Positions 14,605-45,636 are shown, numbered from the stretch's first letter. The stretch: 64,000 nucleotides of DNA from a virus (IMGVR_UViG_3300021364_000008:35004-99003); one strand, 5' to 3'. Notes: a model not told the origin generated them from the letters alone. Translations and numbers: made by a program.

Positions 14605-16080
14605 ATGGCGAAAAATCGCATTACATTTACTGATGATTTTGTCTTAAGAAATGAACAAGTTGGTATTGGAACGACAAATCCATTTGCAACTTTAACAGTT
14701 GTTGGTGATACTAATATTTCTGGTGTTGTAACTGCATCTTCATTTTCTGGTGATGCATTTAATGCTTATCCATTCTACTCTGGAATCACAAGTTCAGTTT
14801 TTGTATCTCCAACTGGTGTTCTCAATCCGGTTATAGAGTTTCCATCAACTGCAGATAAAAGATACATTATTCACTCAATTAATGTTGCAAATGTAGCAAG
14901 AGTTCAACCACAAGTTGCTGGTGCAACTGTTGATATTGATATGAATGCAGGTGCTGTTACATCACTTACGATTGATGGTGTTGGCGTAGGATATACTGAT
15001 GGAGATCTTGGTTCTCCAAGTAATCTTAATGTTTCTTTCGCAACAACTTCTTATGTTGGTGTTGGAACTACTGGTGATCCAGCATACTCTGGTATTACAA
15101 GTGCATTAGGTTACATTACATCAGTATCTGGTGGTGCTGTGACTGGTGTTGCAATTACTTTTGGTGGATTTGGTTATACTTCTGCTCCTGCCGTAACTTT
15201 TGACCCACCAGCAGCAGGAGGAACCACAGAAACAGGAACAGCAGTTCTTACTCTTGGAGAAGTCACTGCAGCAAACTTGAATGTTCCTGGTGAAGGTTAT
15301 ACTGAACCTCCAACGGTTTCTATTGCATCAACAGCAGGAACTGGAGCAGTCATCACAGCAGATGTAGATAGTGATGGAAAGGTTATAAGACTGAATCTAC
15401 TTGCACGAGGTTATGGTTATTCTACGAATAATTCTCTTGGAAATAATGAAGAAAACGAAGTTTATATTTCACAACCACCACTTGCTAAAACAGAAGTTGG
15501 TGTTGATGTAGAAATGGATCGTGTTCCTGTTGGTGGTGGAACTACTGTTGCATCATATCTTGCATTTGATGTTCCTATTCCTGTTGGTGGTGTCCTTGAA
15601 GTTCTCAAGCAACCAGCAGTAATGAATCCTGGTGATGTAATGAAAATTCGTGGTATTGATGCTGATGGTTCTGGTCTAAGTGATGCAATTGATGTATGTA
15701 TTTCTTATGAAGAAACTCACGACAATTATATTGGTTATGGAACTGCAACACCAGCAAATGTGGGTCTTGGAACCACTGTTGCAAATATTGGAATCATAAG
15801 TGCAACAACAAATCCAGTGATGGTACAATCCATAAGACTTACAAATACCGAATTCGTTGGTGATTATGATGTCTCAGTCAAAGTCATCACAGGTGCAGGA
15901 CAAACATTCTATCTTGCAAGGAATCTTATGATTCCATCATTCGCATCAGTAGAACTTTGTGATACACCAAAGAGAATTGAAGCAGGTTCTTATATATTGA
16001 TGGACGCAGAAACTGTTGGTATTGATGCGAATGAAGCAAGTACCATAGATATACAAGTATCAGGAAGACAGATTGTATGA
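14605..16080 (+). CDS. Virion structural/decoration protein
   Basis: VGIGTTNP motif; G(F/E)GYTxxPxV repeats; two related C-terminal beta domains. Confidence 0.6.
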   Translation: MAKNRITFTDDFVLRNEQVGIGTTNPFATLTVVGDTNISGVVTASSFSGDAFNAYPFYSGITSSVFVSPTGVLNPVIEFPSTADKRYIIHSINVANVARVQPQVAGATVDIDMNAGAVTSLTIDGVGVGYTDGDLGSPSNLNVSFATTSYVGVGTTGDPAYSGITSALGYITSVSGGAVTGVAITFGGFGYTSAPAVTFDPPAAGGTTETGTAVLTLGEVTAANLNVPGEGYTEPPTVSIASTAGTGAVITADVDSDGKVIRLNLLARGYGYSTNNSLGNNEENEVYISQPPLAKTEVGVDVEMDRVPVGGGTTVASYLAFDVPIPVGGVLEVLKQPAVMNPGDVMKIRGIDADGSGLSDAIDVCISYEETHDNYIGYGTATPANVGLGTTVANIGIISATTNPVMVQSIRLTNTEFVGDYDVSVKVITGAGQTFYLARNLMIPSFASVELCDTPKRIEAGSYILMDAETVGIDANEASTIDIQVSGRQIV

Positions 16081-16733
16081 GTATTTTTATAGCATTACCT
16101 TGTTATGGCGGAGTGGTTTGTGAGAAGACCACAATGAGTTTGTTTAATCTTGGAAAACTCTTTGTAAGAGAAGGAGTACCACACGGATTATTTACAGTTG
16201 CAAATTCTTCTTTGATTAGTCAAGGAAGAAGTAAGATTGCAAACTTCTTTCTAAATAATACAGACCACGAGTACTTGTTCTTCCTTGATAGTGATATTGG
16301 ATTTGATCCAACTTCAGTATTAAAACTTCTAAGTCATCAAAAGGATATTGTCGCAGCACCTTATCCTATGAAATCAATACCATTACGATACAATTATAAA
16401 CTTGCAGTTCCAGAAGAACGACAAGGTGATCTAGTTAAAATAGAACATAATGGTATGGGATTTGTAATGATTCATCGTAAAGTATTTTATGATATTGCTG
16501 CTGCTTATCCTGAACTGAAATATTATCCATCACTTGACGATAGTAATGTAAGACCAAGTGAACAAGAATATCATAACTCTTATCATTACTTTTTGGAACA
16601 TAAGAATGGACCAAGTTTTATGCCTGAGGATATTAGTTTCTTTTGGAGAGCAAGAAGTTTAGGTTATGAATGTTGGTTAGATAAAAGTGTACATCTCTCA
16701 CACACTGGATCTCACTTATTTGAGGAACGATAA
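16077..16733 (+). CDS. GT-A fold glycosyltransferase-like protein
   Basis: IALPCYGG, LFFLDSDIGF, GMGFVMIHR and EDISF motifs. Confidence 0.7.
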   Translation: MSIFIALPCYGGVVCEKTTMSLFNLGKLFVREGVPHGLFTVANSSLISQGRSKIANFFLNNTDHEYLFFLDSDIGFDPTSVLKLLSHQKDIVAAPYPMKSIPLRYNYKLAVPEERQGDLVKIEHNGMGFVMIHRKVFYDIAAAYPELKYYPSLDDSNVRPSEQEYHNSYHYFLEHKNGPSFMPEDISFFWRARSLGYECWLDKSVHLSHTGSHLFEER

Positions 16734-19612
16734 TGCCGCAGACTGGAGTAAGAACTAACATCTTTGGTATTGGTGAAGTTTATGAACTTCAAAGAGAAGG
16801 TCAGTGGGTAGAAAAGAATAGAGAATCTTATAGGGAGTATGGGTATTTTGGTGGATTGAGAAATGGTCTTACAACATATTCTTTTTCAACTAGAATTGAT
16901 TATTCTAACGATACATCAACAGCAAATACAAGAGGAAATTTTAATTTAAATAGAAATTATATTGCAGCAACAGGAAACTCTAATTTTGGATATTTTGGTG
17001 GTGGTGGTGCTATTTCTACTATAGAAAGAATAGATTATTCTAATGATTCTGCTTTAGCTAGTATTAGAGGTCCATTAACAATAAGTAGAATTGCTGGTTC
17101 TGCAGTGGGGAACTCTAATTTTGGTTGGTTTATTTGTGGGCAAGTATCAAATGTAGATAGAGTAGATTATGCAAATGACTTAGCAACGGCATCAATAAGA
17201 GGTAATGAATTAGCAGATTTTTCCAGATATTCTTCTTTTGGTAATTCTAATTATGGTTGGAATGGTGGTGGAAATAATGCTGTATTCAATAACCCCACAT
17301 CAATGATAAGAAGAATTGATTACTCTAATGATTTAATTGCGCCAACAATTCGTGGACCATTTAATGGTTTTAGAAGATTATTTGGAGCAACAGGAAATTC
17401 TAATTTTGGTTATGCTGGTGGTGATTTTGGTGCATCATCAAGAATTGAACGAGTTCAATATTCAAATGATTTGGTAACTGCAAGTATAAGAGGTCCATTA
17501 AGTTCTGGACGAGGATATTTAACAGCAACTGGAAACTCCAATTTTGGATATTTTAATGGAGGTACTAATGTACCATCACCATCAGTTATAACTTATTCAC
17601 TTACAGATCGCATAGATTATTCAAATGATACAGTAACTGCAAGTGTTAGAGGTTCATCTCCTGTACCTCAATCATATCATGCATCAACCTCCTCAGCATC
17701 ATTCGGTGGTGCTCCTGTTTCATATCTTGGAGCACCTTGGACTGATACAAGTCCTTTTGGGTATTTTGGTGGTGGAAACAATCCAGGAGTTCCTGCAAGT
17801 TATTCAACAATAGATCGTGTTGATTATACAAACGATACAAATACTGCAAGTGTTCGTGGTCCATTGACTGAATTAAAATATGGATTAGCAGCAACAGGAA
17901 ATTCTAATTTTGGATATTTTGGTGGTGGTCTAAATCCTTTAATTACATATCCATCTACAATAGATCGTTTAGATTATTCAAATGATTCTTCTAACTCAAG
18001 TTCAAGAGGATTTTTAACCTCTGGTAGAACCATATTAGCATCGACAGGAAATTCTAACTTTGGATACTTTGGTGGAGGTTCTCTTGGAACATTATCAACT
18101 GTAGACAGAATACAATATTCTAATGATACTGCAACTGCATCAACCAGAGGTCCATTAAGTATAGGAAGAAGACAGTTAAGTGCTACAGGAAATTCTAATT
18201 TTGGATATTTTGGCGGAGGAACTTTTCCCGACTTTTCAACAATAGATCGCATTGATTATTCAAATGATTTATTAACTGCAAGTGCGAGAAATAATCTTCC
18301 AGAAGTACAAAGAGCACTTGCTGCTACAGGAAACTCTAATTTTGGTTATTTTGGTGGAGGTTATACTTCGTTAGTAAGACGATTGGATTATTCAAATGAT
18401 ACTTTCCCAATACTTACTAGAGGTTCTATAGCATCAAGAGGTTTAATTTCTGCAACGGGGAATTCAAACTTTGGATACTTTGGTGGAGGTCAATCTGGTG
18501 CTGGACCATTATCAACAGTAGACCGCATAGATTACTCAAACGACACCCAAACAGCATCAGCAAGAGGTCCATTGAGTGTTGCAAGGCAATATTTAGCAGC
18601 AACCTCCTCACAAGCATTTGGAGGTGCTCCAAACACCACCACAGATCCATTACCTGTGTATATAAGAGATGCTACGAAGTTTGATGATTCTAATACACTT
18701 GATTTACCATTTAAGAGAGTATTGGGGTCTTATGGGTATTTTGGTGGTGGTAGTGTTCCTTCTTTATATTCAACAGTAAATCGCATAGACTATTCTAACG
18801 ATACAACAAATGCATCTGTTAGAGGTTCATTAAGTCAAACTAGATATTCTCACCAGGCAACAGGAAATTCTAACTTTGGTTATTTTGTGGGAGGAAGAGT
18901 TGTTGCAGAACCATCACCTATTGTTTCTTCAAATGATAGAATAAATTATTCAAATGACCTTACATCATCTGTAATAAGAGGACCACTAGCATCTACATCT
19001 TATTTTACAAATGCAATCAGTTCAAATTCTTTTGGATATTTTGATAGTTTTGGTAATATATCAAAATTTGATTATTCTAATGATAATGCTACATCAATAC
19101 AAAGGTTTGTTAGAGTTAGAAGTCAAAATAGATATGGATTGAGTGGTAATTTGAATTTTGCATATTATGCTGGAGGTGGTGCTGGTGGAGGTGGTGGTGC
19201 AGTATCATTAATAGACAGATTAAATTTCTCAAATGATAGTGGAAATTCTGTTTATAGAGGAAATCTTACTTTTAATAAAAGTGAAACATCAAGTGTTGGA
19301 AATGATAATTTTGGATATGTTGGTGGTGCAAGAAGTCCAAGTCCAACTACCATAACTGCTGTTGATAGAATTGATTATTCAAATGATACAGCAACAGCAA
19401 TTTTTAGATTTAATTTAGATAGATTTAGAAATGCCTCAACAGGAAATTCTAACTTTGGATATTTTGCTATGGGTGCTGTAACTGCTGGAAATAGTGTAAA
19501 TTCGCAGATATATCGTTTAGATTATTCAAATGATACTTCTGTGGTTGTGAGATCAAACACAACTTATTCTTCTTGGTTTGCAAGAGGAACAACCAACGCA
19601 AGATCCTCATAA
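16733..19612 (+). CDS. Triple six-bladed kelch-like beta-propeller protein A (18 repeats)
   Basis: 18 repeats of FGYFGGG-x-STVDRIDYSNDTATASVRGPL-x-AATGNSN in three blocks of six. Confidence 0.8.
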   Translation: MPQTGVRTNIFGIGEVYELQREGQWVEKNRESYREYGYFGGLRNGLTTYSFSTRIDYSNDTSTANTRGNFNLNRNYIAATGNSNFGYFGGGGAISTIERIDYSNDSALASIRGPLTISRIAGSAVGNSNFGWFICGQVSNVDRVDYANDLATASIRGNELADFSRYSSFGNSNYGWNGGGNNAVFNNPTSMIRRIDYSNDLIAPTIRGPFNGFRRLFGATGNSNFGYAGGDFGASSRIERVQYSNDLVTASIRGPLSSGRGYLTATGNSNFGYFNGGTNVPSPSVITYSLTDRIDYSNDTVTASVRGSSPVPQSYHASTSSASFGGAPVSYLGAPWTDTSPFGYFGGGNNPGVPASYSTIDRVDYTNDTNTASVRGPLTELKYGLAATGNSNFGYFGGGLNPLITYPSTIDRLDYSNDSSNSSSRGFLTSGRTILASTGNSNFGYFGGGSLGTLSTVDRIQYSNDTATASTRGPLSIGRRQLSATGNSNFGYFGGGTFPDFSTIDRIDYSNDLLTASARNNLPEVQRALAATGNSNFGYFGGGYTSLVRRLDYSNDTFPILTRGSIASRGLISATGNSNFGYFGGGQSGAGPLSTVDRIDYSNDTQTASARGPLSVARQYLAATSSQAFGGAPNTTTDPLPVYIRDATKFDDSNTLDLPFKRVLGSYGYFGGGSVPSLYSTVNRIDYSNDTTNASVRGSLSQTRYSHQATGNSNFGYFVGGRVVAEPSPIVSSNDRINYSNDLTSSVIRGPLASTSYFTNAISSNSFGYFDSFGNISKFDYSNDNATSIQRFVRVRSQNRYGLSGNLNFAYYAGGGAGGGGGAVSLIDRLNFSNDSGNSVYRGNLTFNKSETSSVGNDNFGYVGGARSPSPTTITAVDRIDYSNDTATAIFRFNLDRFRNASTGNSNFGYFAMGAVTAGNSVNSQIYRLDYSNDTSVVVRSNTTYSSWFARGTTNARSS

Positions 19613-19639
19613 ATACTCACAACTACATTATCATACACA

Positions 19640-20719
19640 ATGACTATATCAGGTGCAACTGAAACCTCATACGAATATCTTTACGAACACTTTCAACCAT
19701 CACAAGATATTCATATTTCTCATCTTCCACAAGAACTTAAGACCTCAACAAAACCAATTAAGATTCTGTGGGCACATCACGCATACGATCAACAGGTTTA
19801 TCAAAACTTCTCACACGAACAAGTTACTCATATCGTAACACCATCAAACTGGGCGAAACAAACACTATCTCATTTTCATAAAATACCAGAGAATAAGATC
19901 TCAGTCATTCCAAATGGTGTAGATACTCAATATACTTATTCAAACCAAAAACAAAAACAACTGATATATACCTCAATACCTTATAAGGCACTACCAGTCT
20001 TAGCAGCAGTGATTCCTTTGGTACATTCAATTCATCCTGATGCAAAGTTTAAAATCTTTTCATCTATGAGTCTTTATGGTCCACAGAATGATCCTTTTAT
20101 TGAACTTTACGATCACCTGAAGACTCTACCAAATGTAGAATACTCAAGGGCAATTGATCGTCAACAACTGATTCAACATTACCAAGAATCTGCATTCTTT
20201 ATCAGTCCTTGTATCTGGGAAGAGACTTTTGGTGTTGCTATGTGTGAAGCAATGAGATGTGGTGCATATCCTATCATCACAGACATTGGAGCACTGGAAG
20301 AAGTTGCAGGACCCAATCTTGCAACAGTAGTTCCTATTGAAGGTCAAAGAACTACACAAGGTTATGAAGTCACAGAACGATTTGTGAAGCAGTTTGCAGA
20401 AGCAACTTGTGTAGCATTAGATTACTTTGATAAAGACAGAAAGACTTATGATGAGGTCTCTAAGTCTTGTAGTGATTGGGTTACAAAGCAATATGATTGG
20501 AAGACTATTGCAGGACTATGGAAGAATCTTACAAAGTCATTACAGGGGCATACAGACACCTCTAGTGAGGTGACTACACCGAACGGAGCGACTGTAAGGA
20601 GCGGTGGTGTTGGATTTGCAAATAAGATCGTAGAAAGAAAAGGTGAGACTTATGTAGAAGATAAGGTAGTAGAAAGTTCGGTTGGGGGTTACTTCAACTT
20701 TGATAAATACAACAGATGA
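19640..20719 (+). CDS. Glycosyltransferase family 4 (GT-B)
   Basis: VIPNGVD and EETFGVAMCEAMRCG (ExF..ExxxxG) motifs. Confidence 0.85.
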   Translation: MTISGATETSYEYLYEHFQPSQDIHISHLPQELKTSTKPIKILWAHHAYDQQVYQNFSHEQVTHIVTPSNWAKQTLSHFHKIPENKISVIPNGVDTQYTYSNQKQKQLIYTSIPYKALPVLAAVIPLVHSIHPDAKFKIFSSMSLYGPQNDPFIELYDHLKTLPNVEYSRAIDRQQLIQHYQESAFFISPCIWEETFGVAMCEAMRCGAYPIITDIGALEEVAGPNLATVVPIEGQRTTQGYEVTERFVKQFAEATCVALDYFDKDRKTYDEVSKSCSDWVTKQYDWKTIAGLWKNLTKSLQGHTDTSSEVTTPNGATVRSGGVGFANKIVERKGETYVEDKVVESSVGGYFNFDKYNR

Positions 20720-21651
20720 ATAAACACATAGGAATTTGGAGTTTTATGTCTATTTTACCTGAAAACAGTCTTGGTCTTCGTTCTATTGAAGAATTTTCTC
20801 AAGATAAAGATAAAGCAACAGAATACTTGAAGTCAGCATTTGATAATGTCTATAAGTACCACAAACAAGATTGTGAACTCGCTCAGGGTCGTACAAACTT
20901 TCAGTTAGAGAAGTTTGCTCTTCTTGAGACTTATACACCAGAAACTGCTTACGAAAGTGTTCTCAAGTCTAGAAAACAAATGGGAGAGGGTTTGCTCACA
21001 CTCCTGTTAGATCTCGCTGGGGAAGTAAGATCTTTTGAATATCGTTGGAAAGATAAGGATAAAAATGAACCTATTTTCTGGGAAGAAGCAGCACCCGCTG
21101 GTGGTTCTGGTAAAAAGTTGCTTTGGTTTGATCTTGATGAAATGAGATTGGTTCATAGATTAAAGTCAGCAGAACTTGAGGTTCGTGATCGTCTTTATCA
21201 AATGGAGCACTTAGAAAAAATGCTTCTTAAATTAAGAGAACAACTAGGTGGGGACTTGAGTAGGGAAAGATTCTTGGAAGCTGAACACAAATATTGGGAG
21301 ATTCGCTTCGCAGAGCAATCGGCGGATGAAATTTTGAGTCGTGAAACGGGAATTTCAATCGGCAATATTCATAGTATGAGAAGAGCATCTGCACCTTCAC
21401 TTGTTGATGATAGAAATCAATTGAAAGAAGGTTACTTACCAATTACTAAGATGCTTGAGAGTCCACAAGGAAGAATGGAATTTCTTGGAGACCTTCAACG
21501 CAAAATTGCTGAAGGTTATGAAAATGTAATGGATATTGATCTTGGAACTGGTAGATTTATTCCTGCAGCAGAAAGAAACAAACTTCGTCAACAAAAAGAA
21601 CAAGGACAAATTTCTGGTTCTCCAGAAAACACTGAGATTGTTGAGGAATAA
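20716..21651 (+). CDS. Hypothetical helical protein (alternative start 20746)
   Basis: Long charged ORF, no recognised motif. Confidence 0.6.
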   Translation: MNKHIGIWSFMSILPENSLGLRSIEEFSQDKDKATEYLKSAFDNVYKYHKQDCELAQGRTNFQLEKFALLETYTPETAYESVLKSRKQMGEGLLTLLLDLAGEVRSFEYRWKDKDKNEPIFWEEAAPAGGSGKKLLWFDLDEMRLVHRLKSAELEVRDRLYQMEHLEKMLLKLREQLGGDLSRERFLEAEHKYWEIRFAEQSADEILSRETGISIGNIHSMRRASAPSLVDDRNQLKEGYLPITKMLESPQGRMEFLGDLQRKIAEGYENVMDIDLGTGRFIPAAERNKLRQQKEQGQISGSPENTEIVEE

Positions 21652-21684
21652 ATAATATCGTTCGTGAACCGACAACCAGAACAT

Positions 21685-21713
21685 AAGGACGGGATTTACT
21701 CTTGTCCTTTTTT
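21685..21713 (+). terminator. Rho-independent terminator
   Basis: aaggacggga/tcttgtcctt stem (with G-U pairs) plus T tract. Confidence 0.6.
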
Positions 21714-21745
21714 AATATCTAAATACACCAGAATATAATGATGAA

Positions 21746-22234
21746 ATGAAACATAAGATCCAAATTATAGACAACTTCCTTGACGAACCACTGACCTACA
21801 AGAACTCCAAAGACCCCAACGCAACACAAGAAATCTCAAATAAGATCGCTCATATCCTCCAAGCAAACATAAAACTCTCCTCATCCTCAAACACACCAAA
21901 TCAAATCTTTGCTGATTACTCTTGTGATTTTATTGCGATGCTTTATTTGGACTTTCCAACAGAATGTGTGAATAAAAAAGCAGTATCATTTTGGATGCAT
22001 AAAGAAACACAAGATGAAGAACTACCAAATGAAACTAAATTGAAATGGTTAGGACTTCAAAGTGTTGAAGAAATTGAGAAGTGTTATGATGTAAGTAAAG
22101 TTGAGGACTGGGAGAGGTATATGAGTTATTATATCAAATATAATCGCCTGATATTATTTGATGCGAAGATGTTTCATTCCTATGGTGATGAGAGTGATTG
22201 TAGGAAATTTAATATAGAGATAAATAATTTATAA
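21746..22234 (+). CDS. 2OG-Fe(II) oxygenase-like protein (DUF6445-like), possibly catalytically degenerate
   Basis: IIDNFLDEP N-terminus and YNRLILFDAKMFHS C-terminus; the HxD position reads FAD. Confidence 0.6.
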   Translation: MKHKIQIIDNFLDEPLTYKNSKDPNATQEISNKIAHILQANIKLSSSSNTPNQIFADYSCDFIAMLYLDFPTECVNKKAVSFWMHKETQDEELPNETKLKWLGLQSVEEIEKCYDVSKVEDWERYMSYYIKYNRLILFDAKMFHSYGDESDCRKFNIEINNL

Positions 22235-22252
22235 TAGAGTTTCTGTGTCTAA

Positions 22253-25159
22253 ATGTCTGGAATATTTGGTCTTTCTGCTTATAACGATCAAAACTTAGCA
22301 GGTCTTATACCAGATAAGACCAGAGAATCCTTTAGGGAGTATGGGTATTTTGGAGGTGGAAATGCTCCAGGAAATGTATCAACAGTAGACCGAATAGATT
22401 ACTCTAACGACACAGCAACAGCATCAGTTAGAGGTCCATTAGATATTATTAAAAGAAATGTGGAAGCAACAGGAAACTCTAACTTTGGTTATTTTGGTGG
22501 AAGTTTACCACTAAGATCAACAGTAGACCGCATAGATTACTCTAACGACACAGCAACAGCATCAGTTAGAGGTCCATTAAGTCAAGAAAAATATTCTTCT
22601 TCTGCATCTGGAAATTCAAATTTCGGTTGGTTTACTGGAGGACATACAAATGACAATATAATAGATATTAATTTTTCAATTTCAACAATAGATCGTATTG
22701 ATTATTCAAATGATTTATCTACTGCTTCTATAAGAGGAAATTTAAATCAAAATAGAACTAATCATAGTATTGCTGGAAATTCAAATTATGGATGGATTGC
22801 TGGAGGAAATCTTGCAGTAAATGATTCTCCATTTTTTACTTCTGTTGAAAGATTGGATTATTCAAATGATGTTTCATTAACATCATTTAGATCCACATCA
22901 AATGATATATCAGGTCAAGGTAATAGTGCGACAGGAAATAATAATTTTGGATATTATCATAGAGCAAATTTTCCTGCAGGAACTAATAGAACAGATTTGC
23001 AGCGTATTGATTATTCTAATGATTTAATTAGTCCAACATTGAGAGGCAATTTAACTTTACTTATTACTGGTAGGGCAGCATCTGGAAACTCTAACTTTGG
23101 TTATTTTAGTGGTGGATCATTAGTTCCAGCAGGTTATGAGCCTAACTCTTCGGTTGAAAGAATAGATTATTCTAACGACACCACAATAGCATCAGTTAGA
23201 GGTCCATTATCTTCTGCAAGGTCTTCATTAGCAGCAACCTCCTCACACAGTTTCGGTGGATCTCCAATCTCACAATACGGAGTGTTTCCAAAACCTTTTG
23301 GGTATTTTGGAAATAATGCAAATTTTTCAAGATTTGATTTCTCAAATGATACATCAGCATCCGTAAGTAGAACATCAATTTCTGGAGTTGTACTTGTAGC
23401 AAAAGCAACAGGAAATTCAAATTATGCCTGGATTGGTGGAGGATTATTTTCAGTAAGTTCCAAAGTATATCGTTTTGATTATTCAAATGATAATGCTGGT
23501 GGAGTACAAAGAGGACCATTAAGTGCTGCAAGAGGATCTTTTGCAGCAACTGGAAATTATAACTTTGGATATTTTAGTGGTGGAATAGATCCTGGAGTCC
23601 CACCAAAGTATTCAATAGTAGACCGCATTGATTACTCAAATGATAATGTAACTGCTTTAAGAAGAGGTTCCCTGAGTGCAGTAAATTATAACCATACTGG
23701 AGTTTCAAATTTAAGTTATGCTTACTTTATTGGTGGAGGTGATGGACCAACAACAAAAACTTGGGTAGAAAGAATCAATTATTCTAATGATAATGCCTCA
23801 ACATCTTATAGATCACCATTACAAAATTCAAGACGACTTCTTGCATCTTCAGGGAATTCTAATTTTGCATATGTTTCTGGAGGAGATGTTGGTGGAGTAG
23901 TAAATTCTATTGTAGAACGAATTGATTATGCAAGTGATACTTCTGCAACAAGTATTCGTGGACCATTAAGTTTAGCAAGAGCTGGATTTGCAGGAACAGG
24001 AAATTCTAATTTTGGTTATTTTGGTGGTGGTGGTGCTCCTGGACTAGTATCAACAGTAGACCGCATAGATTATTCCAATGATACTGCAACTGCAACTGCA
24101 AGAACTACAAATACTTTTAGTGATGTAGTAGATTATGGTATTTCTCCACTCACACCAAGCAGTGCATTCTCACCAGACCAACTAATTAGAGGAACATCAA
24201 ACACTGACTTCCAACCAACTTCAACATTCTTTGATATTCAGTCAATGAGAAGAATTGAAGATACTACAAATGAAAGTGTGAAGAAGAGAGTGTTGGGGTC
24301 TTATGGGTATTTTGGTGGTGGTTTAAGTCCAGATGTATCAACAGTAGAAAGAATTGATTATTCCAATGATAATTCTTCTGGTTTAATTAGAGGACCACTA
24401 TCTGGAATAAAAAGACAACCAACAGGAGTTGGAAATAATAATTTTGGTTATATAGTTGCTGGTGGAATTTCTTCACCATCATTCGTATCATTAATAGAAA
24501 GAATTGACTATTCAAATGATTCTGTAAATACATCTATAAGAGGAAATATTGATAGATCTGTGGTTTCTGCATTTTCGGTTGGAAATGAAAAATATGGGTA
24601 TATTGCTGGTGGATTTTTATACAATTCAAGAGTCCAAAGAATAGATTATTCTAATGATAATTCAACACCGACTATTAAAGGATCTTTAAATAAATTGACT
24701 GCTGGTGCTGGAGCAGCAGGAAATAACAATTTTGGGTATTTTGGTGGTGGTGGAGATGCGTCTATTTATACTTCTATAGTAGAAAGAATTAATTATTCTA
24801 ATGATTCAATTAAACCTTCAATTAGAGGTCCATTAAGTTTAGCAAGAAGTAGATTGGGAGCAACAGGAAATAACAATTTTGGGTATTTTGGTGGAGGTAG
24901 AAGTTCTGTAGATACTTCAATTATAGAAAGAATAGATTATTCCAATGATACTGTATTAGCATCTGTAAGATCAAATTTAGTTTTACCATCATATGCAGTA
25001 TCTTCTACAGGAAATTCAAACTTTGGATACTTTATTGGGTTTCCATTTTTTAGTACACATAGATTAGATTACAATAATGATACAAATAATACTATTCTAA
25101 GAGGCGCTTTATCAGCTGTAAGATATAGAGCAGCAACAACCAACGCAAGAAACTCCTAA
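22253..25159 (+). CDS. Triple six-bladed kelch-like beta-propeller protein B (18 repeats)
   Basis: Same 3 x 6 repeat architecture; ends TTNARNS. Confidence 0.8.
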   Translation: MSGIFGLSAYNDQNLAGLIPDKTRESFREYGYFGGGNAPGNVSTVDRIDYSNDTATASVRGPLDIIKRNVEATGNSNFGYFGGSLPLRSTVDRIDYSNDTATASVRGPLSQEKYSSSASGNSNFGWFTGGHTNDNIIDINFSISTIDRIDYSNDLSTASIRGNLNQNRTNHSIAGNSNYGWIAGGNLAVNDSPFFTSVERLDYSNDVSLTSFRSTSNDISGQGNSATGNNNFGYYHRANFPAGTNRTDLQRIDYSNDLISPTLRGNLTLLITGRAASGNSNFGYFSGGSLVPAGYEPNSSVERIDYSNDTTIASVRGPLSSARSSLAATSSHSFGGSPISQYGVFPKPFGYFGNNANFSRFDFSNDTSASVSRTSISGVVLVAKATGNSNYAWIGGGLFSVSSKVYRFDYSNDNAGGVQRGPLSAARGSFAATGNYNFGYFSGGIDPGVPPKYSIVDRIDYSNDNVTALRRGSLSAVNYNHTGVSNLSYAYFIGGGDGPTTKTWVERINYSNDNASTSYRSPLQNSRRLLASSGNSNFAYVSGGDVGGVVNSIVERIDYASDTSATSIRGPLSLARAGFAGTGNSNFGYFGGGGAPGLVSTVDRIDYSNDTATATARTTNTFSDVVDYGISPLTPSSAFSPDQLIRGTSNTDFQPTSTFFDIQSMRRIEDTTNESVKKRVLGSYGYFGGGLSPDVSTVERIDYSNDNSSGLIRGPLSGIKRQPTGVGNNNFGYIVAGGISSPSFVSLIERIDYSNDSVNTSIRGNIDRSVVSAFSVGNEKYGYIAGGFLYNSRVQRIDYSNDNSTPTIKGSLNKLTAGAGAAGNNNFGYFGGGGDASIYTSIVERINYSNDSIKPSIRGPLSLARSRLGATGNNNFGYFGGGRSSVDTSIIERIDYSNDTVLASVRSNLVLPSYAVSSTGNSNFGYFIGFPFFSTHRLDYNNDTNNTILRGALSAVRYRAATTNARNS

Positions 25160-25186
25160 TAAATACCTCAAACAACCCACTACATA

Positions 25187-25810
25187 ATGAGACGCTCTAT
25201 CATAATACTTGACGATTTCCACGAGAATCCACAAGAAGTCCGTAACTACGCAATATCTGCAGAGTACTCCAAAGAAGAAACTGCAACTTTTCCAGGATCA
25301 AACTCAACAACAGGTTTCCAAGAAGACCTACTAAAATCAAAGATAGAATCAATTCTTCAAAGACCCATAAAACCCTCAAATACTTTTGGATACTTTAGAT
25401 ATTCTTGGGAAACATCCAATCAAGAAAATCCAAAACTCCAAAAAGTTCATGTTGATAATGGATGGGAGTTTGGTGGAGTTTGTTACTTATCAACACCAGA
25501 ACAACTCAAAGATAATCCAGATTCGGGAACATTATTCACAAGACATAAGATCTTAAAGACAGACGCAACACCAAGAACCAAAGAAGAAGCAGAACTCTTT
25601 GGTTATACTCATTATGATGAGTTAAGACAATCAATCATTTATGGTGATGGATTAGACTTGGATAAGTGGGAGGTGTATGCTCGTTGTTTGCCTAAGTTCA
25701 ATCGTTTAGTCTTATTCCGTGCTTGGATGTATCATAGTCATTTTGTAAATTTTGGTCCAAAAGATCCAGCACAAAGTCGTCTAGTTCAATTATTCTTTTT
25801 TAATACTTGA
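25187..25810 (+). CDS. 2OG-Fe(II) oxygenase-like protein (DUF6445-like)
   Basis: ILDDFHENP, HVD, FNRLVLF...HS and RLVQLFF motifs. Confidence 0.75.
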   Translation: MRRSIIILDDFHENPQEVRNYAISAEYSKEETATFPGSNSTTGFQEDLLKSKIESILQRPIKPSNTFGYFRYSWETSNQENPKLQKVHVDNGWEFGGVCYLSTPEQLKDNPDSGTLFTRHKILKTDATPRTKEEAELFGYTHYDELRQSIIYGDGLDLDKWEVYARCLPKFNRLVLFRAWMYHSHFVNFGPKDPAQSRLVQLFFFNT

Positions 25811-26658
25811 TTATGCACTATTCATACTATTTTATGTCTGGGTTGCCCAGGAGTGGTTCTACACTCTTAAGATCCATATTAAATCAAAATGAGTCCATAT
25901 ACAGTGGACCAATCTCACCATCAGTAGAACTCCTCTACTACACAGACAAATACTTTCAATCCAGTGAGATGTTACTTGCATCACCAAATCCTCAAGGTTG
26001 TTATGATGTTCTATCCAATATGATGGATCACTTCTATCATAATATAATGGAGAAAGAAGGTAAATCAAAAATCATAGAATTCAATAGAGCAATTCCAAAT
26101 AACATTGAACGATTTAGAACTTATATTAAAGATGATGTAAGAATTGTATGTCCTGTAAGAAGTATACCAGAAATCCTTGCAAGTTTTATTAGTTTGATTC
26201 ACAAAAATAGTGATAAGGTTTCATTTGTGGATCAGTATTTGATTGATAAAGGTATTGAAGTGAATGATGATACTCGTTGTGATTACTTGATGAGTGATTA
26301 TGGTATTGTCGGTCAGGCATTATTTGCGATGAGTCGTCCATATTTGAGAAACGAACAGAGTCTATTGAAGATCGTTGAGTATGATGACCTTGTAGAGAAT
26401 ACTGATAAAGTAATGGAAGAGATCTATGACTTCTGGGGATTAGAGAAGTATTCGCATAGCTATGAGAACTTAGAGAATACTTATCCAGAGAATGATATTT
26501 TTCAGTATAATTTAGATGGGATGCATACGATTGGTAGAACAATTAAGAAGACTTGTAAGAAACCAGAAGAAGTCTTAAGTAAGGAGATCATTGAAAAGTA
26601 TAGTGGTATGGAATTTTGGAGAACTGATTGTAGTAATAAGTATTATCTTACGATCTAA
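25807..26658 (+). CDS. Sulfotransferase family protein
   Basis: PAPS-binding GLPRSGSTLL; VRS..EILAS; YDDLV. Confidence 0.85.
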   Translation: MIMHYSYYFMSGLPRSGSTLLRSILNQNESIYSGPISPSVELLYYTDKYFQSSEMLLASPNPQGCYDVLSNMMDHFYHNIMEKEGKSKIIEFNRAIPNNIERFRTYIKDDVRIVCPVRSIPEILASFISLIHKNSDKVSFVDQYLIDKGIEVNDDTRCDYLMSDYGIVGQALFAMSRPYLRNEQSLLKIVEYDDLVENTDKVMEEIYDFWGLEKYSHSYENLENTYPENDIFQYNLDGMHTIGRTIKKTCKKPEEVLSKEIIEKYSGMEFWRTDCSNKYYLTI

Positions 26659-26686
26659 TAAATAATCAATAAAGTGTCTAAAACTG

Positions 26687-29608
26687 ATGGCGGACAATAA
26701 AAATATTCAAAAAGTGTTTGGTCTTAGTGATTATCGCAAACTTCAATTAACATCTAAAATACCTGAGAGAGGTAGAGAATCCTTCAGGGAGTATGGATAC
26801 TATTCAATGGGTGCTCCTTTTGGGCAACATGGTTTTACTAATGTCTATCGGTTAGATTTTACAAATGATACTAATATATTAAATATTCATAATTATTTAA
26901 ATATTAGACGCAGTTTAGCAGCAGCAGCAGGAAACTCTAACTCTGGATATTTTGGTGGTGGTTCTTTTGGACAATCAATATCATCAATAGAACGAATAGA
27001 CTATGCAAATGATGTTGCAACTCCATCATTTAGAGGTCCATTAAGTTTAGCAAGATCTAGATTAGCAGCAACAGGAAACTCCAATTTTGGTTATTTTGCT
27101 GGGGGAATGATTTCAGAATCATCTAATAATACATCAAGAACAGATAGAATTAATTATTCAAATGATTTAGCAACTGCAGCAATAAGAGGTCCATTATCAT
27201 TCGCCAGGCAATCGGTGGGTGCAGCATTTTCTAATAGTAAATATGGTTATTTTACTGGGGGGTCATTAGTACAATATTATGCTCCAGTATTTTCTACAAT
27301 TGAAAGAATAGATTATTCCAATGATATTTTTTTACCATCAATTAGGGGTCCTTTAAGTTCTGCAAGAAGATACGCAGCAGGAATTGGAAATTTAAATTAT
27401 GGATATTCTGGTGGAGGAAGAAATACTCCAGCCAATGCTATATCTTTAGTAGATCGCATTGATTACTCAAATGATACGGCACAATCAAGTCCAAGAGGTA
27501 ATTTAGTCCGGGCAAGAACTAATCTTGGTGCAACAGGAAATTCTAATTTTGCTTGGTTTATGGGTGGATTTTCCTCAATGATTGATAGAGTAGATTATGC
27601 AAATGATACAATAACTTCAACAAGTAGAGGAAGATTAGATAGTAGTTTATATGGCGGACAAGCAACCTCCTCACACAGTTTCGGTGGATCTCCAAACTCT
27701 TCATTTGCCTCTAACTTTACATTTCCTACTGTTCCTAATGCTGGGTATTTTGGTGGTGGTACTATTCCAGGACCAGCAGTAACAGCAAGTATTGATAAAG
27801 TAGATTATGCAAATGATACAGCAACTGCAAGTGTTCGTAGTGCTTTGAGTGTTGCAAGAAACTCAATTGGTTCTATTGGTAATAATTCTTTTGGTTATTT
27901 TGCTGGTGGATTTATTCCAAGTCCAGCAACATTTTCAACAATAGATCGCATAGAATATTCAAGTGATACACAAAACACAATAACAAGAGGTCCATTAAGT
28001 TCTTCTAAAGGACAAATATCTGGTACAGGAAACTCAAACTTTGGTTATTTTGGTGGTGGTACTCCTGGACCAAGATCAACAGTAGACCGCATAGACTACT
28101 CTAACGACTCAGCAACAGTAAGTGTTAGAGGTCCATTAAGTTTAGCAAAAAGATATTTTTCAACATTAAGTAATTTTAATTTTGGTTATAATTGCGGTGG
28201 TTATGTTCCTGCCGGAAATGCATCAAATGTAGACCGCATAGATTACTCCAATGATACAGCAACAGCATTAGCAAGAGGACCACTACAATCAGTATCATCA
28301 CATACAAGCGGAGGTGCAGGAAATATTAATTTTGGTTATGCATTTAATGGAATTTTTGGTGGAGATAGATCAATTATAAATCGCATAGATTATTCTAACG
28401 ATACTCAAACAGCATCAGTAAGAGGTCCTTTAAGTACATATTCTGCATTTAGAGCGATGACTGGAAGTTCCAGTTTTGGATATGTTGGTGGTGGTGATGC
28501 AATATCAACAATAGACCGTATCAACTTCTCAAACGATACTGCAATCGCACAAGTAAGAGGACCACTACCAGTTGCTAAAAGTAGTGGAGCAGCAACCTCA
28601 CCACTTGCTTATGGTGGTGCTCCAATTTATTTCACCAATCCACTTCCACAAGTCTTCCAGGACCAGATTGAGTTTGATGATTCTAATACACTTGATTTAC
28701 CATTTAAGAGAGTGTTGGGGTCTTATGGGTATTTTGGTGGAGGTTCTTCTATTCTAAGTAGAATAGATTTTTCAAATGATTTAGCAACTTCATCAAGTAG
28801 ATCTGTTGTTGTGATTACTAGTGATGAAGCATATGCAGGAACTGGGAATAATAATTTTGGTTATTTTGGTGGTGGGTATTTTTCTGCATTGGGAACTTCT
28901 ACAGTAGGAAGAGTTGATTATTCTAATGATAATGCTATTTGTTCTATAAGAGGACCACTTACAACATCACTACGATTACAATCTGCATCAGGTACAAATA
29001 ATTTTGGATATTTTGCTGGCGGAATTGCTATTGGTGTGACTAGATCAACAATAACAAGAATAGATTATTCAAATGATTTAGCAACATCTCAAAATAGATC
29101 TAATATGAAATTTAGCAAAACTGTAATGGGATTTACAAGTAATTCTAATTTTGGTTATTTAGCAGCGGGATTTCAATTTCCAAGCACTGCGTATTCTAAT
29201 GTAGAAAGAATAAATTATTCAAATGATAATATTTCACCAACTACTAGAGGTAATTTAAGTTCAAATAAAAATAATTCCTTTTATTATAGTTTTGGTTCAA
29301 CAGGAAACTCCAACTTTGGTTATTTTGGTGCTGGAACAAATTCTGGACCATTATCAACAGTAGACCGCATAGATTACTCTAACGATACAGCAACAGCATC
29401 AGTAAGAGGACCATTAAGTTTAGCAAGAAGAGAATTAGCAGCAACAGGAAATTCTAACTTTGGTTATTTTGGTGGTGGTGCTCCTGGACCAAGATCAAGA
29501 GTAGACCGCATAGATTACTCTAACGATACAGCAACAGCATCAGTAAGAGGTCCATTTTCTTTTGCAAGAGTATCATATTGCGCCACAACCAACGCAAGAA
29601 ACTCCTAA
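26687..29608 (+). CDS. Triple six-bladed kelch-like beta-propeller protein C (18 repeats)
   Basis: Same 3 x 6 repeat architecture; ends TTNARNS. Confidence 0.8.
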   Translation: MADNKNIQKVFGLSDYRKLQLTSKIPERGRESFREYGYYSMGAPFGQHGFTNVYRLDFTNDTNILNIHNYLNIRRSLAAAAGNSNSGYFGGGSFGQSISSIERIDYANDVATPSFRGPLSLARSRLAATGNSNFGYFAGGMISESSNNTSRTDRINYSNDLATAAIRGPLSFARQSVGAAFSNSKYGYFTGGSLVQYYAPVFSTIERIDYSNDIFLPSIRGPLSSARRYAAGIGNLNYGYSGGGRNTPANAISLVDRIDYSNDTAQSSPRGNLVRARTNLGATGNSNFAWFMGGFSSMIDRVDYANDTITSTSRGRLDSSLYGGQATSSHSFGGSPNSSFASNFTFPTVPNAGYFGGGTIPGPAVTASIDKVDYANDTATASVRSALSVARNSIGSIGNNSFGYFAGGFIPSPATFSTIDRIEYSSDTQNTITRGPLSSSKGQISGTGNSNFGYFGGGTPGPRSTVDRIDYSNDSATVSVRGPLSLAKRYFSTLSNFNFGYNCGGYVPAGNASNVDRIDYSNDTATALARGPLQSVSSHTSGGAGNINFGYAFNGIFGGDRSIINRIDYSNDTQTASVRGPLSTYSAFRAMTGSSSFGYVGGGDAISTIDRINFSNDTAIAQVRGPLPVAKSSGAATSPLAYGGAPIYFTNPLPQVFQDQIEFDDSNTLDLPFKRVLGSYGYFGGGSSILSRIDFSNDLATSSSRSVVVITSDEAYAGTGNNNFGYFGGGYFSALGTSTVGRVDYSNDNAICSIRGPLTTSLRLQSASGTNNFGYFAGGIAIGVTRSTITRIDYSNDLATSQNRSNMKFSKTVMGFTSNSNFGYLAAGFQFPSTAYSNVERINYSNDNISPTTRGNLSSNKNNSFYYSFGSTGNSNFGYFGAGTNSGPLSTVDRIDYSNDTATASVRGPLSLARRELAATGNSNFGYFGGGAPGPRSRVDRIDYSNDTATASVRGPFSFARVSYCATTNARNS

Positions 29609-29634
29609 TAAATACTAAAAACAACTTCAATACT

Positions 29635-30285
29635 ATGAATTTATTATCAAATATCTTGATTGAACCACAAGTACTCACACCAGAAGCACTTCAAGAACTA
29701 CAAGATCACGCAAGAAAATCATCCACAACTGACTTATCAGTTTTTGATCCAGACAAAACAAATGAAACTGGAGAGACTTCTTGGATTGTAGATAAGGATA
29801 TAAGAGATACACAGATTATTGAGTTTGGTCCTTTATTTCCAAAGATTGAAGAACTCTTTAAGAATATTGTACATCATATTATAAATCCTTTTTATGGTAT
29901 TGAAGTATGGGATAGTGAAGTACCACAATTTCTTAAGTATAATGTTGGAGGCCATTACTCTCCTCATATTGATGGTAGATCTATTTGGGTTGCTCCTAAT
30001 GGTGATAAGATTTGGAGACTTAGTACGGATCGTCATCTAAGTTGCGTTCTTTATTTGAACGACGATTTTGAAGGTGGCGAGTTTGCTTTTCCAGACCTTC
30101 ATATTCAAGTGAAACCAAAACCAGGACTTTTAGTTTGTTTTCCATCAGATCAAAATTATTTGCATAGCGTACTTCCAGTAACTCAAGGAACACGGTACTC
30201 CATTGTAACTTGGGCGAGAGTCAAAGGGCAAAAAACTAAAGAACAAGAAGACCAAGAACTTTTAGAAAAGTATGGAGTCAACTAA
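29635..30285 (+). CDS. 2OG-Fe(II) oxygenase, prolyl 4-hydroxylase-like
   Basis: YNVGGHYSPHID, LYLNDDFEGGE and HSVLPVTQGTRYSIVTW motifs. Confidence 0.88.
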   Translation: MNLLSNILIEPQVLTPEALQELQDHARKSSTTDLSVFDPDKTNETGETSWIVDKDIRDTQIIEFGPLFPKIEELFKNIVHHIINPFYGIEVWDSEVPQFLKYNVGGHYSPHIDGRSIWVAPNGDKIWRLSTDRHLSCVLYLNDDFEGGEFAFPDLHIQVKPKPGLLVCFPSDQNYLHSVLPVTQGTRYSIVTWARVKGQKTKEQEDQELLEKYGVN

Positions 30286-41328: not shown

Positions 41329-42270
41329 ATGTCTTTTGAAAGTCTCAAGAAGCAGTCAAAGCTTGGTTCTCTTACTGATAAATTAGTAAAAGAAGTTGAA
41401 AAAATGAGTTCCACATCTGGTGGTTCTGATGAACGTTTCTGGAAACCAGAAATGGATAAAGGTGGAACAGGATATGCAGTAATTAGGTTTCTACCTGCCC
41501 CAGAAAATGAAGATCTTCCATGGGTAAAAATGTTTTCTCATGGATTTCAGGGTCCCGGTGGATGGTATATTGAGAATTCTCTGACTACACTTGGGCAAAA
41601 AGATCCTGTTTCTGAGTATAATCGTACTCTATGGAACAGTGGGAATGAAAAGGATAAGGATATTGTTCGTAAGCAAAAACGTAAACTATCTTATTATAGC
41701 AACATCTATGTTATAAAGGATCCTATGCACCCAGAAAATGAGGGTAAAGTTTTCCTTTTTAAATACGGGAAAAAGATCTTTGATAAGATTATGTGTGCTA
41801 TGCAACCTGAATTTGATGATGAAGAACCCATCAATCCTTTTGACTTTTGGCAGGGTGCAAACTTTAAAGTGAAGATTGTAAAGAAAGATGGTTATTGGAA
41901 TTATGATAACTCAGAGTTTTCAAATCCATCTCCTCTTCTTGATGGTGATGATGATGCTCTAGAGGCACTTTGGAAGAAGCAAAGTTCTTTGACTGCACTG
42001 GTCGCTCCAGATCAGTTCAAGACTTATGATGAACTTGAGAAGCGTATGAATCAAGTTCTAAACATTGGTAAAGTTGCACCCAAATCTCAATCATACGATG
42101 AGGAGCAAGAGTATGAATCTTATGTACCCAAGAAAACTAAAGAGGATAATGTGATGGAAGAGCTAGAATCTTCTTACATCAAGAGTAAGCAAACTCCAGT
42201 GCGAGAAGATTCTTCTTCTGAAGATGAAGATGATGCCCTCTCATACTTTCAAAAATTAGCAGAAGATTAA
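41329..42270 (+). CDS. gp32: Single-stranded DNA-binding protein gp32
   Basis: GYAVIRFLP, WYIENSLTT and WNYD motifs; acidic tail; promoter TTGACA(41225)-17-TATATT. Confidence 0.95.
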   Translation: MSFESLKKQSKLGSLTDKLVKEVEKMSSTSGGSDERFWKPEMDKGGTGYAVIRFLPAPENEDLPWVKMFSHGFQGPGGWYIENSLTTLGQKDPVSEYNRTLWNSGNEKDKDIVRKQKRKLSYYSNIYVIKDPMHPENEGKVFLFKYGKKIFDKIMCAMQPEFDDEEPINPFDFWQGANFKVKIVKKDGYWNYDNSEFSNPSPLLDGDDDALEALWKKQSSLTALVAPDQFKTYDELEKRMNQVLNIGKVAPKSQSYDEEQEYESYVPKKTKEDNVMEELESSYIKSKQTPVREDSSSEDEDDALSYFQKLAED

Positions 42271-43016: not shown

Positions 43017-43017
43017 T

Positions 43018-44427: not shown

Positions 44428-44510
44428 CAGAACTTCTCCTCAAATAAAAAAGGACTAATTATCTCAATTTTTCGTAGAGTATGAGACATTTATAAATTAT
44501 TTTTATTTAT

Positions 44511-44963
44511 TTATAACCCAAGTTCTTCTTCCGTAATGATTTTAAATTCAATCATACGATCATCACACCATTCCTTTGCTGCTTTCCACTTTGCAATATT
44601 TTTATTATAGGTAAGAACTTCATTAATGTAAGTTTTTTTTCTCTTACCTTTAGATTCTTTTGGTTCTAATGTTTGTCTTTTTGGTTTAACTTCCACCAGA
44701 TATTTTTTGGTTTTTCCACTACTTTCTTTGATTTTTATAATAAAGTCTGGAAAATATCTACGAACCTTATTTGTTGTTGGATCTAGATAAGGAATAAAAA
44801 ATTCTTCTGACCCATATTTTAATATGTTGGGAGAACGATCGCACCATTGCATAAACTTAAGTTCCCAATTGCTTCTATACACTATATTATTTGGATTTCC
44901 AATATATTTTTCTGGATTTCTTGGATGAAAAAATCCTTGATGATATTTTGAATCACGAGGCAT
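44511..44963 (-). CDS. gp4: Head completion nuclease gp4
   Basis: PEKY.G....VYRS.WE, RYFPDF, VEVKP, N.AKW.AA and FKIITE motifs. Confidence 0.9.
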   Translation of the reverse strand: MPRDSKYHQGFFHPRNPEKYIGNPNNIVYRSNWELKFMQWCDRSPNILKYGSEEFFIPYLDPTTNKVRRYFPDFIIKIKESSGKTKKYLVEVKPKRQTLEPKESKGKRKKTYINEVLTYNKNIAKWKAAKEWCDDRMIEFKIITEEELGL

Positions 44964-45522: not shown

Positions 45523-45542
45523 TATGAATTAACTATTCAATA

Positions 45543-45605: not shown

Positions 45606-45636
45606 ACATAGTATAAGAACCATACAATATTTATAA

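Follow-up and report, generated by a model that had tools for sequence, protein, structure and literature searches.

Short C/A-rich zones at the starts of enzyme genes interleaved with giant repeat-protein genes in a phage genome

Asymmetries between the two DNA strands have been described in several settings. In mitochondria, the heavy and light strands differ by an amino/keto skew which is set by the time spent single-stranded and which forms a gradient over kilobases from fixed origins, with a T>C/A>G asymmetry and a strong C>T component. For the PeSL-type shuffling cassettes of T4-type phages, the defining features are an early promoter and a stem-loop. In the resected flanks of human meiotic hotspots, strand-asymmetric A>N and C>N mutations have been reported (PMC7615360), and a passage of that article cites damaged single-stranded DNA clusters in yeast as a further strand-asymmetric case. 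In Escherichia coli, single-stranded CA-repeat tails, as well as CA repeats located 3' of the start codon, strongly raise translation initiation (PMC5934652). Here, a 64,000-nucleotide (nt) stretch of viral DNA (IMGVR_UViG_3300021364_000008:35004-99003; hereafter the window, all positions being counted from its first base) was analyzed. It harbors a locus in which small enzyme genes are interleaved with three giant repeat-protein genes (giants A, B and C; Table 1). At the start of four or five of the enzyme genes, the coding strand carries a C/A-rich zone of 150 to 560 nt, which is restricted to one phage clade.

Strand asymmetry within the enzyme genes

A first-pass annotation of the window had described a sawtooth pattern, in which constant segments start C/A-rich and end G/T-rich. 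This asymmetry was confirmed to be real. The four hand counts on which the description was based proved exact (41 C and 10 G at 21781-21900, 32 G and 9 C at 22081-22200, 16 C and 4 G at 24141-24180, 21 G and 1 C at 24271-24320), A and C together making up 77% of the first of these intervals. Calculated in 120-nt windows, the GC skew began at -0.54 and reached +0.56 across 19600-20700; the corresponding values were -0.62 and +0.55 for 21800-22100, -0.33 and +0.32 for 25300-25600, and -0.32 and +0.54 for 25900-26500, by which the polarity seen by eye at 19590-20700, 25140-25700 and 25860-26640 was borne out. By contrast, the linkers at 18600-18750 and 28590-28740, to which the same polarity had been ascribed, are each unskewed as a whole. 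C/A-rich windows are rare across the contig carrying the window, while equally strong G-rich windows occur about 30 times.

The gradient includes silent sites. After amino-acid content had been corrected for with the contig's own codon usage, the synonymous G-minus-C excess of the 3' third exceeded that of the 5' third by z differences of 5.2 in the glycosyltransferase gene, 9.5 in the first DUF6445-type gene, 5.8 in the second DUF6445-type gene and 6.3 in the sulfotransferase gene. These four genes occupy ranks 1 to 4 among 86 genes (the value at rank 5 is 3.6), and the probability that all four top genes fall within the 12-gene locus by chance is about 2e-4. At four-fold sites, 98 A, 30 C, 10 G and 54 T were counted in the 5' zones as against 65 A, 9 C, 19 G and 65 T in the 3' zones (Fisher p=5.6e-4 for G versus C, p=2e-4 for keto versus amino). 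Third positions are composed of A.42, C.19, G.10 and T.29 in the 5' zones and of A.28, C.09, G.19 and T.44 in the 3' zones, compared to a background of A.36, C.08, G.11 and T.46. Accordingly, the share of C among Y-ending codons is.40 in the 5' zones and.16 in both the 3' zones and the background, and that of G among R-ending codons is.22,.48 and.24, respectively. Six-fold degenerate amino acids also change their codon family between the zones. No gradient was detected in the genes at 20716-21651 (synonymous z near 0) and 16077-16733, nor in the giants themselves. Loss of the skew at four-fold sites, or its equal presence in core genes, had been named beforehand as speaking against the proposal; neither occurred, since the skew is kept at silent sites and is not present in other genes.

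For the linkers of the giants, the assumption of a synonymous component held only in part. Overall, their skew is mostly explained by Pro/Ser/Thr versus Gly codons. The C-rich halves are largely amino-acid-driven (synonymous z -0.9 to -2.1), and a synonymous G excess is limited to the G-rich halves of B and C (z +2.8 to +3.8). In the giant B linker, 24143-24178 is C-rich mainly through Pro/Ser/Thr codons, while 24272-24319 is G-rich with a synonymous z of +3.8.

Within the affected enzyme genes, the synonymous signal peaks in the first 50 codons or so. With a codon usage reference taken from outside the locus, the first 50 codons gave z values for GC skew, AT skew and GC content of -6.1, +4.1 and +6.6 in the first DUF6445-type gene, -4.3, +3.2 and +3.6 in the second, and -2.3, +3.5 and +3.6 in the sulfotransferase gene; those of the glycosyltransferase gene yielded -2.1, +1.5 and +1.4. 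In zone 1, the cumulative skew has its maximum at 19547-19580 and its minimum at 20208, the window skew ranges from -0.54 to -0.14, and both of the first two 50-codon windows have a synonymous GC-skew z of -2.1. Zone 2 contains a sudden switch from C-ending to T-ending codons at about 21905. Zone 4, in the sulfotransferase gene, is not preceded by any variable block; the 3' part of this gene reaches synonymous z values of +3.3, +1.8 and +3.6, and its 3'-third z of +3.79 is the highest of the 86 genes. At the start of the prolyl-hydroxylase-like gene (zone 5), the synonymous signal is weaker than in the other zones, and the last 50 codons of giant C preceding it have a synonymous GC-skew z of -3.1.

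Table 1. Zones, genes and signals of the locus (positions in the window; aa, amino acids; ORF, open reading frame)
Feature	Position	Strand	Remarks
C/A zone 1	19548-20207	+	Last ~60 nt of giant A, 27-nt G-free leader, first ~190 codons of 19640-20719
G-rich 3' part of glycosyltransferase gene	20208-20719	+	Skew +0.14 to +0.56; includes variable new C-terminal tail (20480-20600)
C/A zone 2	21660-21953	+	Spacer and first ~55-69 codons of 21746-22234; skew -0.62
G/T-rich 3' part of 21746-22234 and leader of giant B	21954-22252	+	Skew +0.55; synonymous z +3.3 to +3.5
C/A zone 3	25057-25626	+	End of giant B, G-free leader, first ~146 codons of 25187-25810; bounded by cumulative-skew extrema
C/A zone 4 (weaker)	25811-26117	+	First ~100 codons of 25813-26658; skew -0.32
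G-rich 3' part of sulfotransferase gene and leader of giant C	26118-26686	+	Skew +0.27 to +0.54
C/A zone 5 (short)	29460-29770	+	End of giant C and start of 29635-30285; skew -0.44 at 29600; cumulative minimum at 29768
Giant A, repeat-protein, 959 aa	16733-19612	+	ORF; phrog_19111; Gly-rich GNSNFGYFGGG / DRIDYSND repeats
Giant B, repeat-protein, 968 aa	22253-25159	+	ORF; Gly-rich repeats
Giant C, repeat-protein, 973 aa	26687-29608	+	ORF; Gly-rich repeats
Group-1 glycosyltransferase gene	19640-20719	+	Pfam Glycos_transf_1/4
Split-off glycosyltransferase C-terminal half	20716-21651	+	No gradient; blastp to 580-590-aa ORFs
First DUF6445-type gene	21746-22234	+	
Second DUF6445-type gene	25187-25810	+	
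Sulfotransferase gene	25813-26658	+	Pfam Sulfotransfer_3; abuts the gene before it
2OG-Fe(II) oxygenase gene (prolyl-hydroxylase-like)	29635-30285	+	Pfam 2OG-FeII_Oxy_3
Intrinsic-terminator-like hairpin, then T run	21685-21709	+	
Promoter-like site	21712-21739	+	TAAATAC at 21720
Conserved ~30-nt element at 3' ends of giants	19582-19618, 25129-25168, 29578-29617	+	ACAACCAACGCAAGAnnCTCn-TAA-(T)AAATAC; 19 distinct junctions aligned by eye

The contig is 99 kb long, has about 34% G+C and a mean coding-strand GC skew of +0.15, and carries almost all of its genes on the plus strand. Its tail and baseplate proteins match PHROG tail families, one tail protein matching only Synechococcus and Prochlorococcus phages, with at most 38% identity. 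While megablast searches of the locus against phage records revealed no close relative, the closest DNA match, itself a weak one, is a single-cell virus classified within the Kyanoviridae, and S-SKS1 was also weakly matched by blastn. Judged by these tail-protein and DNA matches, the source virus is a divergent cyanomyovirus-like phage. The G+C content at third codon positions (GC3) of giants A, B and C (0.115, 0.119 and 0.130) is the lowest in the contig, whose mean is 0.204, and the giants show a steady surplus of A-ending over T-ending codons. The two top GC3 values of the contig (0.337 and 0.312) belong to small genes between the giants. Downstream of the locus, a 121-aa ORF at 31076-31441 matches the Cas12f1-like/TnpB TNB domain (PF07282, E=5e-27) and is apparently a C-terminal fragment.

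Restriction to one clade and continuing maintenance

Scans with the glycosyltransferase yielded 38 viral and 80 metagenomic loci. About 16 distinct syntenic contigs with 76-94% protein identity displayed the same gradient in the same four genes, and in a set of 877 ORFs (1.4 Mb of related DNA), the 45 or so strongest gradients came almost exclusively from these four gene families. In another clade (L003, 67% identity), the glycosyltransferase possesses the amino-acid part of the pattern, while its third positions are T-rich as normal. More distant phages (~60% identity) have the same interleaving of giants and enzyme genes; at their 88 distinct junctions downstream of a giant, the skew is +0.07, which is their own background, compared to -0.27 in the close clade. 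Alphaproteobacterial DUF6445 homologs do not show a gradient. Since bacterial homologs and distant phages with the same gene order lack the effect, it is neither a property of the proteins nor of adjacency to a giant. Amino-acid content alone is likewise ruled out as the cause by the skew at synonymous and four-fold sites, its absence from the alphaproteobacterial homologs and its weakness in those of distant phages. An additional sulfotransferase paralog lies 5' of the fiber genes in two close relatives (L001:547-1344, L002:449-1240); it exhibits a weaker gradient (-0.15 to +0.30) without a third-position component.

Compared with the distant homologs, third positions of the 5' zones shifted from about A.30, C.11, G.14 and T.45 to about A.40, C.16, G.09 and T.35 in the close clade, a shift which is nearly the mirror image of the usual composition. 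For zone 3, the values are A.33, C.11, G.13 and T.43 in distant homologs and A.47, C.16, G.08 and T.29 in the clade. On the other hand, the 3' zones differ little between the close clade and the distant homologs, in which they are already G3-rich. As 3' G-richness is at least partly common to the distant homologs, the clade-specific change is one-sided: the lineage-specific novelty is the C/A-rich 5' zone, comprising the G-free leader and the first 50 to 100 codons, in which C- and A-ending codons have taken the place of T-ending ones. G-richness at the 3' ends is for the most part a distinct trait, ordinary for a genome with a positive coding-strand skew, and every relative has G3-rich versions of these enzyme genes. 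The 5' zone of the first DUF6445-type gene has kept its composition though it is the least conserved part of the gene (third-position identity 0.39-0.40). GC-biased gene conversion is ruled out, because GC3 of the zones (0.24-0.28 in the clade) does not differ from that of the distant homologs (0.18-0.26); instead, G has been exchanged for C and T for A.

Substitutions at third positions within the close clade were polarised from site patterns, using disjoint sister pairs and unanimous outgroups. As parsimony inflates common-to-rare changes, only complementary rates were compared. In the 5' zones, T>C amounted to 4.6% versus 2.1% for A>G (p=2e-4) and A>C to 1.6% versus 0.6% for T>G (p=0.014), while C>T (8.2%) versus G>A (6.0%) was not reversed. 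In the 3' zones, A>G (4.9%) exceeded T>C (3.0%) and C>T (15.2%) exceeded G>A (8%), and the control genes show the same direction. Dividing T>C per T by A>G per A gives 2.2 for the 5' zones, 0.6 for the 3' zones and 0.7-0.9 for the controls. Compared to the 3' zones of the same genes, the 5' zones lose C and A about half as often (C>T 8.2/15.2, A>G 2.1/4.9, A>T 2.1/3.9) and gain C about 1.6 times as often. For the same genes and pairs, total third-position change is 6.7% (5' zones) and 7.6% (3' zones). A bias by which C and A are retained or added on the coding strand of these gene starts is still active.

The sawtooth had originally been attributed to recurrent breaks in the variable blocks, with C-to-T deamination of the resected 3' single-stranded tails, a model that predicts C>T left of the blocks and G>A right of them. 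The substitutions do not follow this pattern: in the 5' zones, G>A lags behind C>T, and the C>T excess of the 3' zones merely equals that of the controls. Nor is the substitution rate raised, as cytosine deamination in exposed flanks would demand. What stands of that interpretation is the geometry at block edges in this clade and the synonymous nature of the skew; it conflicts with the substitution pattern, the rate, the junctions of distant phages, the sulfotransferase gene and the one-sidedness of the change. The zones are not a C-to-T deamination scar as first proposed.

Possible causes of the zones

Selection on the mRNA or on its translation at the gene starts is the explanation towards which we lean, while giving it somewhat less than an even chance. 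What is observed directly is a composition localized at gene starts, restricted to one clade and still maintained; the selected property would be accessibility, translation or stability of the mRNA. C- and A-ending codons stand in place of T- and G-ending ones in the leader-adjacent zones of the glycosyltransferase gene, the two DUF6445-type oxygenase-like genes, the sulfotransferase gene and, briefly, the prolyl-hydroxylase-like gene, and amino acids have also moved to C-rich codons where the protein tolerates it. RNA consisting mostly of A and C is unable to pair with itself, leaving exceptionally unstructured starts, which may favor ribosome loading without a Shine-Dalgarno sequence on late transcripts after a 3-kb G/U-rich giant cistron. 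In a variant of this mechanism, C- and A-ending codons might be read by Watson-Crick pairing, resulting in faster early elongation.

Several observations point in this direction. The leaders in front of the genes at 19640, 25187 and 29635 do not contain any G. When 300-nt windows around 98 gene starts were ranked by their GC-corrected folding energy, the starts at 25187, 21746 and 29635 turned out to be the three least structured ones (+26, +23 and +17 kcal/mol, standard deviation 8.7), because A/C RNA cannot base-pair with itself. Hairpins spanning the gene junctions, as would be required for translational coupling, are therefore unsupported, the junctions being unusually unstructured. The synonymous effect resides in the first ~50 codons even of the sulfotransferase gene, which does not follow a variable block. 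Moreover, the halved loss of A and C, the several types of change towards C and the rate that is not raised look like conservation of composition. Selection on the mRNA or its translation would explain why the effect centers on leaders and first codons and why several substitution types take part, as well as the halved A/C loss, the low structure and the restriction to one clade; CA-rich enhancers provide an experimental precedent (PMC5934652).

An ATAAATA motif is located 22-50 nt 5' of about 25 gene starts (e.g. at 8580, 11398, 19609, 22220, 25159, 26658, 29608 and 30288), nearly always on the plus strand. The window contains 23 copies on the plus and eight on the minus strand, the latter close to minus-strand genes. 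A four-gene minus-strand block at 42267-45522 of this plus-strand contig has its own minus-strand ATAAATA motifs at 44504-45634. By its sequence and position, the motif behaves in a manner consistent with the late promoter of T4-type phages. The other ~25 genes with ATAAATA at the same spacing lack a C/A zone, by which a late promoter is ruled out as the cause of the zones. At the 3' ends of the giants, the motif is part of a conserved element of about 30 nt (Table 1), which codes for TTNAR(N/S)S and continues into the stop codon and TAAATAC. The element is present in every giant of the clade, and its silent positions are kept across the three paralogs and 16 relatives.

Some of the data weigh against selection at the level of the mRNA. 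As the remaining ATAAATA genes lack a zone, such selection would have to be gene-specific. In giant C, the synonymous C skew begins about 150 nt 5' of the promoter-like motif of the next gene, and in front of the first DUF6445-type gene, it begins 5' of the terminator. Known standby and enhancer elements measure 16-50 nt, whereas the zones extend over 150-560 nt of coding sequence. The mirror-image shifts of A/T and G/C are more simply explained by a strand-polar process acting on the DNA, and the polarity fits the edges of variable blocks in seven out of nine flanks. Thus, the length of the zones, the choice of genes and the extension 5' of two promoter-like sites are left unexplained.

The main rival explanation, possible though less likely, is a strand-polar bias of this kind that recombination or repair would create along the borders of exchangeable cassettes (the giants and the junction of the 20716-21651 gene associated with HNH endonucleases); it modifies the original break proposal. 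To the right of a block, the bottom strand would be repeatedly exposed, invading or repaired and would gain G and lose A, which the top strand reads as T>C. The source would be adenine-type changes or biased mismatch repair, not deamination of cytosine. If the three giants are counted as variable blocks along with the divergent gene at 20716-21651, the seven flanks mentioned above show the predicted polarity; in their 3' third, the genes directly 5' of giants B and C rank first and second for synonymous G excess, and the genes 3' of them have the most negative 5' values. The start of zone 1 (~19580) coincides with the point from which all 16 relatives can be aligned, the giant before it being unalignable, and the best-matching relative changes every 100-300 nt. 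Furthermore, the glycosyltransferase gene gained its zone in the lineage in which it came to follow a giant, and the third positions of the zones nearly mirror the normal composition. The clade-specific 30-nt element which ends all giants could be an initiation site.

The organization around the split glycosyltransferase also bears on this possibility. In distant phages, the 20716-21651 gene corresponds to the C-terminal half of a single glycosyltransferase of 580-590 aa (585 aa), whereas here the gene is split. It is strongly divergent in this phage (identity to relatives 0.62-0.77), and the 5' half has gained a variable Gly/Val/Glu-rich tail (20480-20600) with a median identity to relatives of 0.54-0.57. 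Two relatives (L052:9187-10200, L049:3116-4228) carry, between their homologs of the 20716 and 21746 genes, a free-standing gene resembling HNH homing endonucleases, in which the motif YTESHHIFP precedes three repeats of about 55 aa. In the window, the spacer at this insertion site measures only 94 nt.

However, such a bias should also reverse the pairs C>T/G>A, A>T/T>A and A>C/T>G in the 5' zones, which was not the case, and the synonymous rate is not raised there. The 88 junctions in distant phages of the same architecture remain at background skew, the start of the sulfotransferase gene is affected without an adjacent block, and left flanks are unshifted relative to distant homologs. The predicted skew is missing from 16077-16733, which lies 5' of giant A, and, right of the variable tail, from the beginning of 20716-21651. 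An oriented Chi-like oligomer common to the zones was not found; in the search for shared oriented oligomers, the top z of about 3.3 among thousands of k-mers corresponds to the chance level. It is conceivable, though rather unlikely, that the zones are a heritable composition footprint of polar recombination initiation at the edges of receptor or surface-protein cassettes, or else selected G/T-rich 3' tails that favor strand invasion, the 30-nt element serving as an entry or nicking site either way. Recombination would explain the geometry and the mirror-like composition.

Import of the zones together with giant cassettes from a donor with another codon and skew regime, with crossovers scattered inside the downstream conserved genes, is improbable. 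It would agree with the pervasively mosaic identity patterns, with the excess of A-ending over T-ending codons that giants and zones share relative to the rest of the contig, and with the step-like codon switch at about 21905, which coincides with a jump in identity to relatives. But among 120 related loci and 50,697 phage records, no donor of such composition was found, the asymmetry of substitutions continues within the clade, the giants lack the C excess and raised GC3 of the zones, and for four or five genes to share one polarity, import would have to have recurred with identical geometry. Very little probability is assigned to antisense transcription, or an overlapping antisense gene, reversing a transcription-linked asymmetry. 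While the mirror-like third positions would fit and minus-strand sigma-70-like matches lie at most 100 nt from three of the five switch points, such matches occur at chance frequency (65 found versus 65.3 expected), a minus-strand ATAAATA motif is not present near any switch point, antisense frames are open for at most 70 codons, inconsistent and junk-like, and the zones have no Rfam match.

The further suggestion of pairing between the two ends of a segment, as RNA or as single-stranded DNA, or of zones that bracket and loop out the giants, is already largely refuted and hardly credible, since the potential duplex energies of -60 to -90 kcal/mol follow from composition alone and, apart from one marginal case (21740-21905 versus 22040-22252, z=-1.96), nothing beyond composition emerged from zone-wise shuffles of the other three gene-internal start/end pairs (z -0.14, 0.0, +0.17), the four pairs bracketing giants or the split gene (z -0.63, +0.32, -1.09, -0.35), the zones versus upstream giants (z -0.73, -1.67, +0.28), the whole-mRNA fold of the first DUF6445-type gene (z=-1.0 versus shuffles) or the direct and inverted repeats in the zones, which are at chance level. 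Finally, C-rich, G-poor zones may suggest Rho-dependent terminators. This was set aside, because the phage relatives of the tail protein all infect Synechococcus or Prochlorococcus and cyanobacteria are not known to possess Rho.

Implications and comparison with known systems

If the zones result from selection on the mRNA, leader-like constraints reach far into coding sequence in hosts which rarely use Shine-Dalgarno pairing, and caution is required in codon-based inference on phage auxiliary genes. If they are linked to recombination, they would provide a sequence-only marker of the site and direction of cassette exchange in uncultured phages. In either case, the locus is a clean natural test case, as the same genes exist with and without zones in sister clades.

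The zones share with the CA-rich standby and enhancer elements (MS2 coat model, CA multimers) an unpaired, A/C-rich and G-poor RNA around a start without Shine-Dalgarno sequence. Single-stranded A/C-rich RNA next to the start codon was indeed found here, with G-free leaders, the 77% A+C mentioned above and, by predicted folding, the three least structured starts. Unlike these enhancers, the zones reshape codon and amino-acid usage and are confined to a few genes of one phage clade. With the resected flanks of double-strand breaks at human hotspots (PMC7615360), they have in common a flip of polarity across a presumably break-prone segment, a scale of hundreds of bases and changes of the A>G type. 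What separates them is the absence of a C>T/G>A reversal, the rate, which is not raised, the essentially one-sided change, the unaffected sister clades and the fact that the composition itself is shifted, not only the mutations.

The mitochondrial gradient resembles the zones in its A+C versus G+T skew and its T>C/A>G asymmetry, and the reciprocal asymmetry expected from single-strand time was found (ratios 2.2 and 0.6). Here, however, there are five short zones at gene starts, and a C>T/G>A asymmetry of the same polarity does not accompany them. As at the GC-skew switch of bacterial origins, the top strand passes from C/A-rich to G/T-rich within each gene, but four or five switches occur within 10 kb inside conserved enzyme genes, on a thousand-fold smaller scale, and origin features were not found. 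The cassettes of T4-type phages are similar in that short conserved promoter-bearing elements flank variable genes and that relatives are mosaic at the borders; they differ in that the present locus has a strand-composition zone and no stem-loop conserved at the ends of the giants. Strand asymmetry, CA-rich enhancers and break-associated asymmetric mutation are already known, whereas short clade-specific reversals at gene starts between hypervariable phage genes are new: strand-composition reversals of a few hundred bases inside conserved genes, present throughout a clade, are no described feature of phage genomes.

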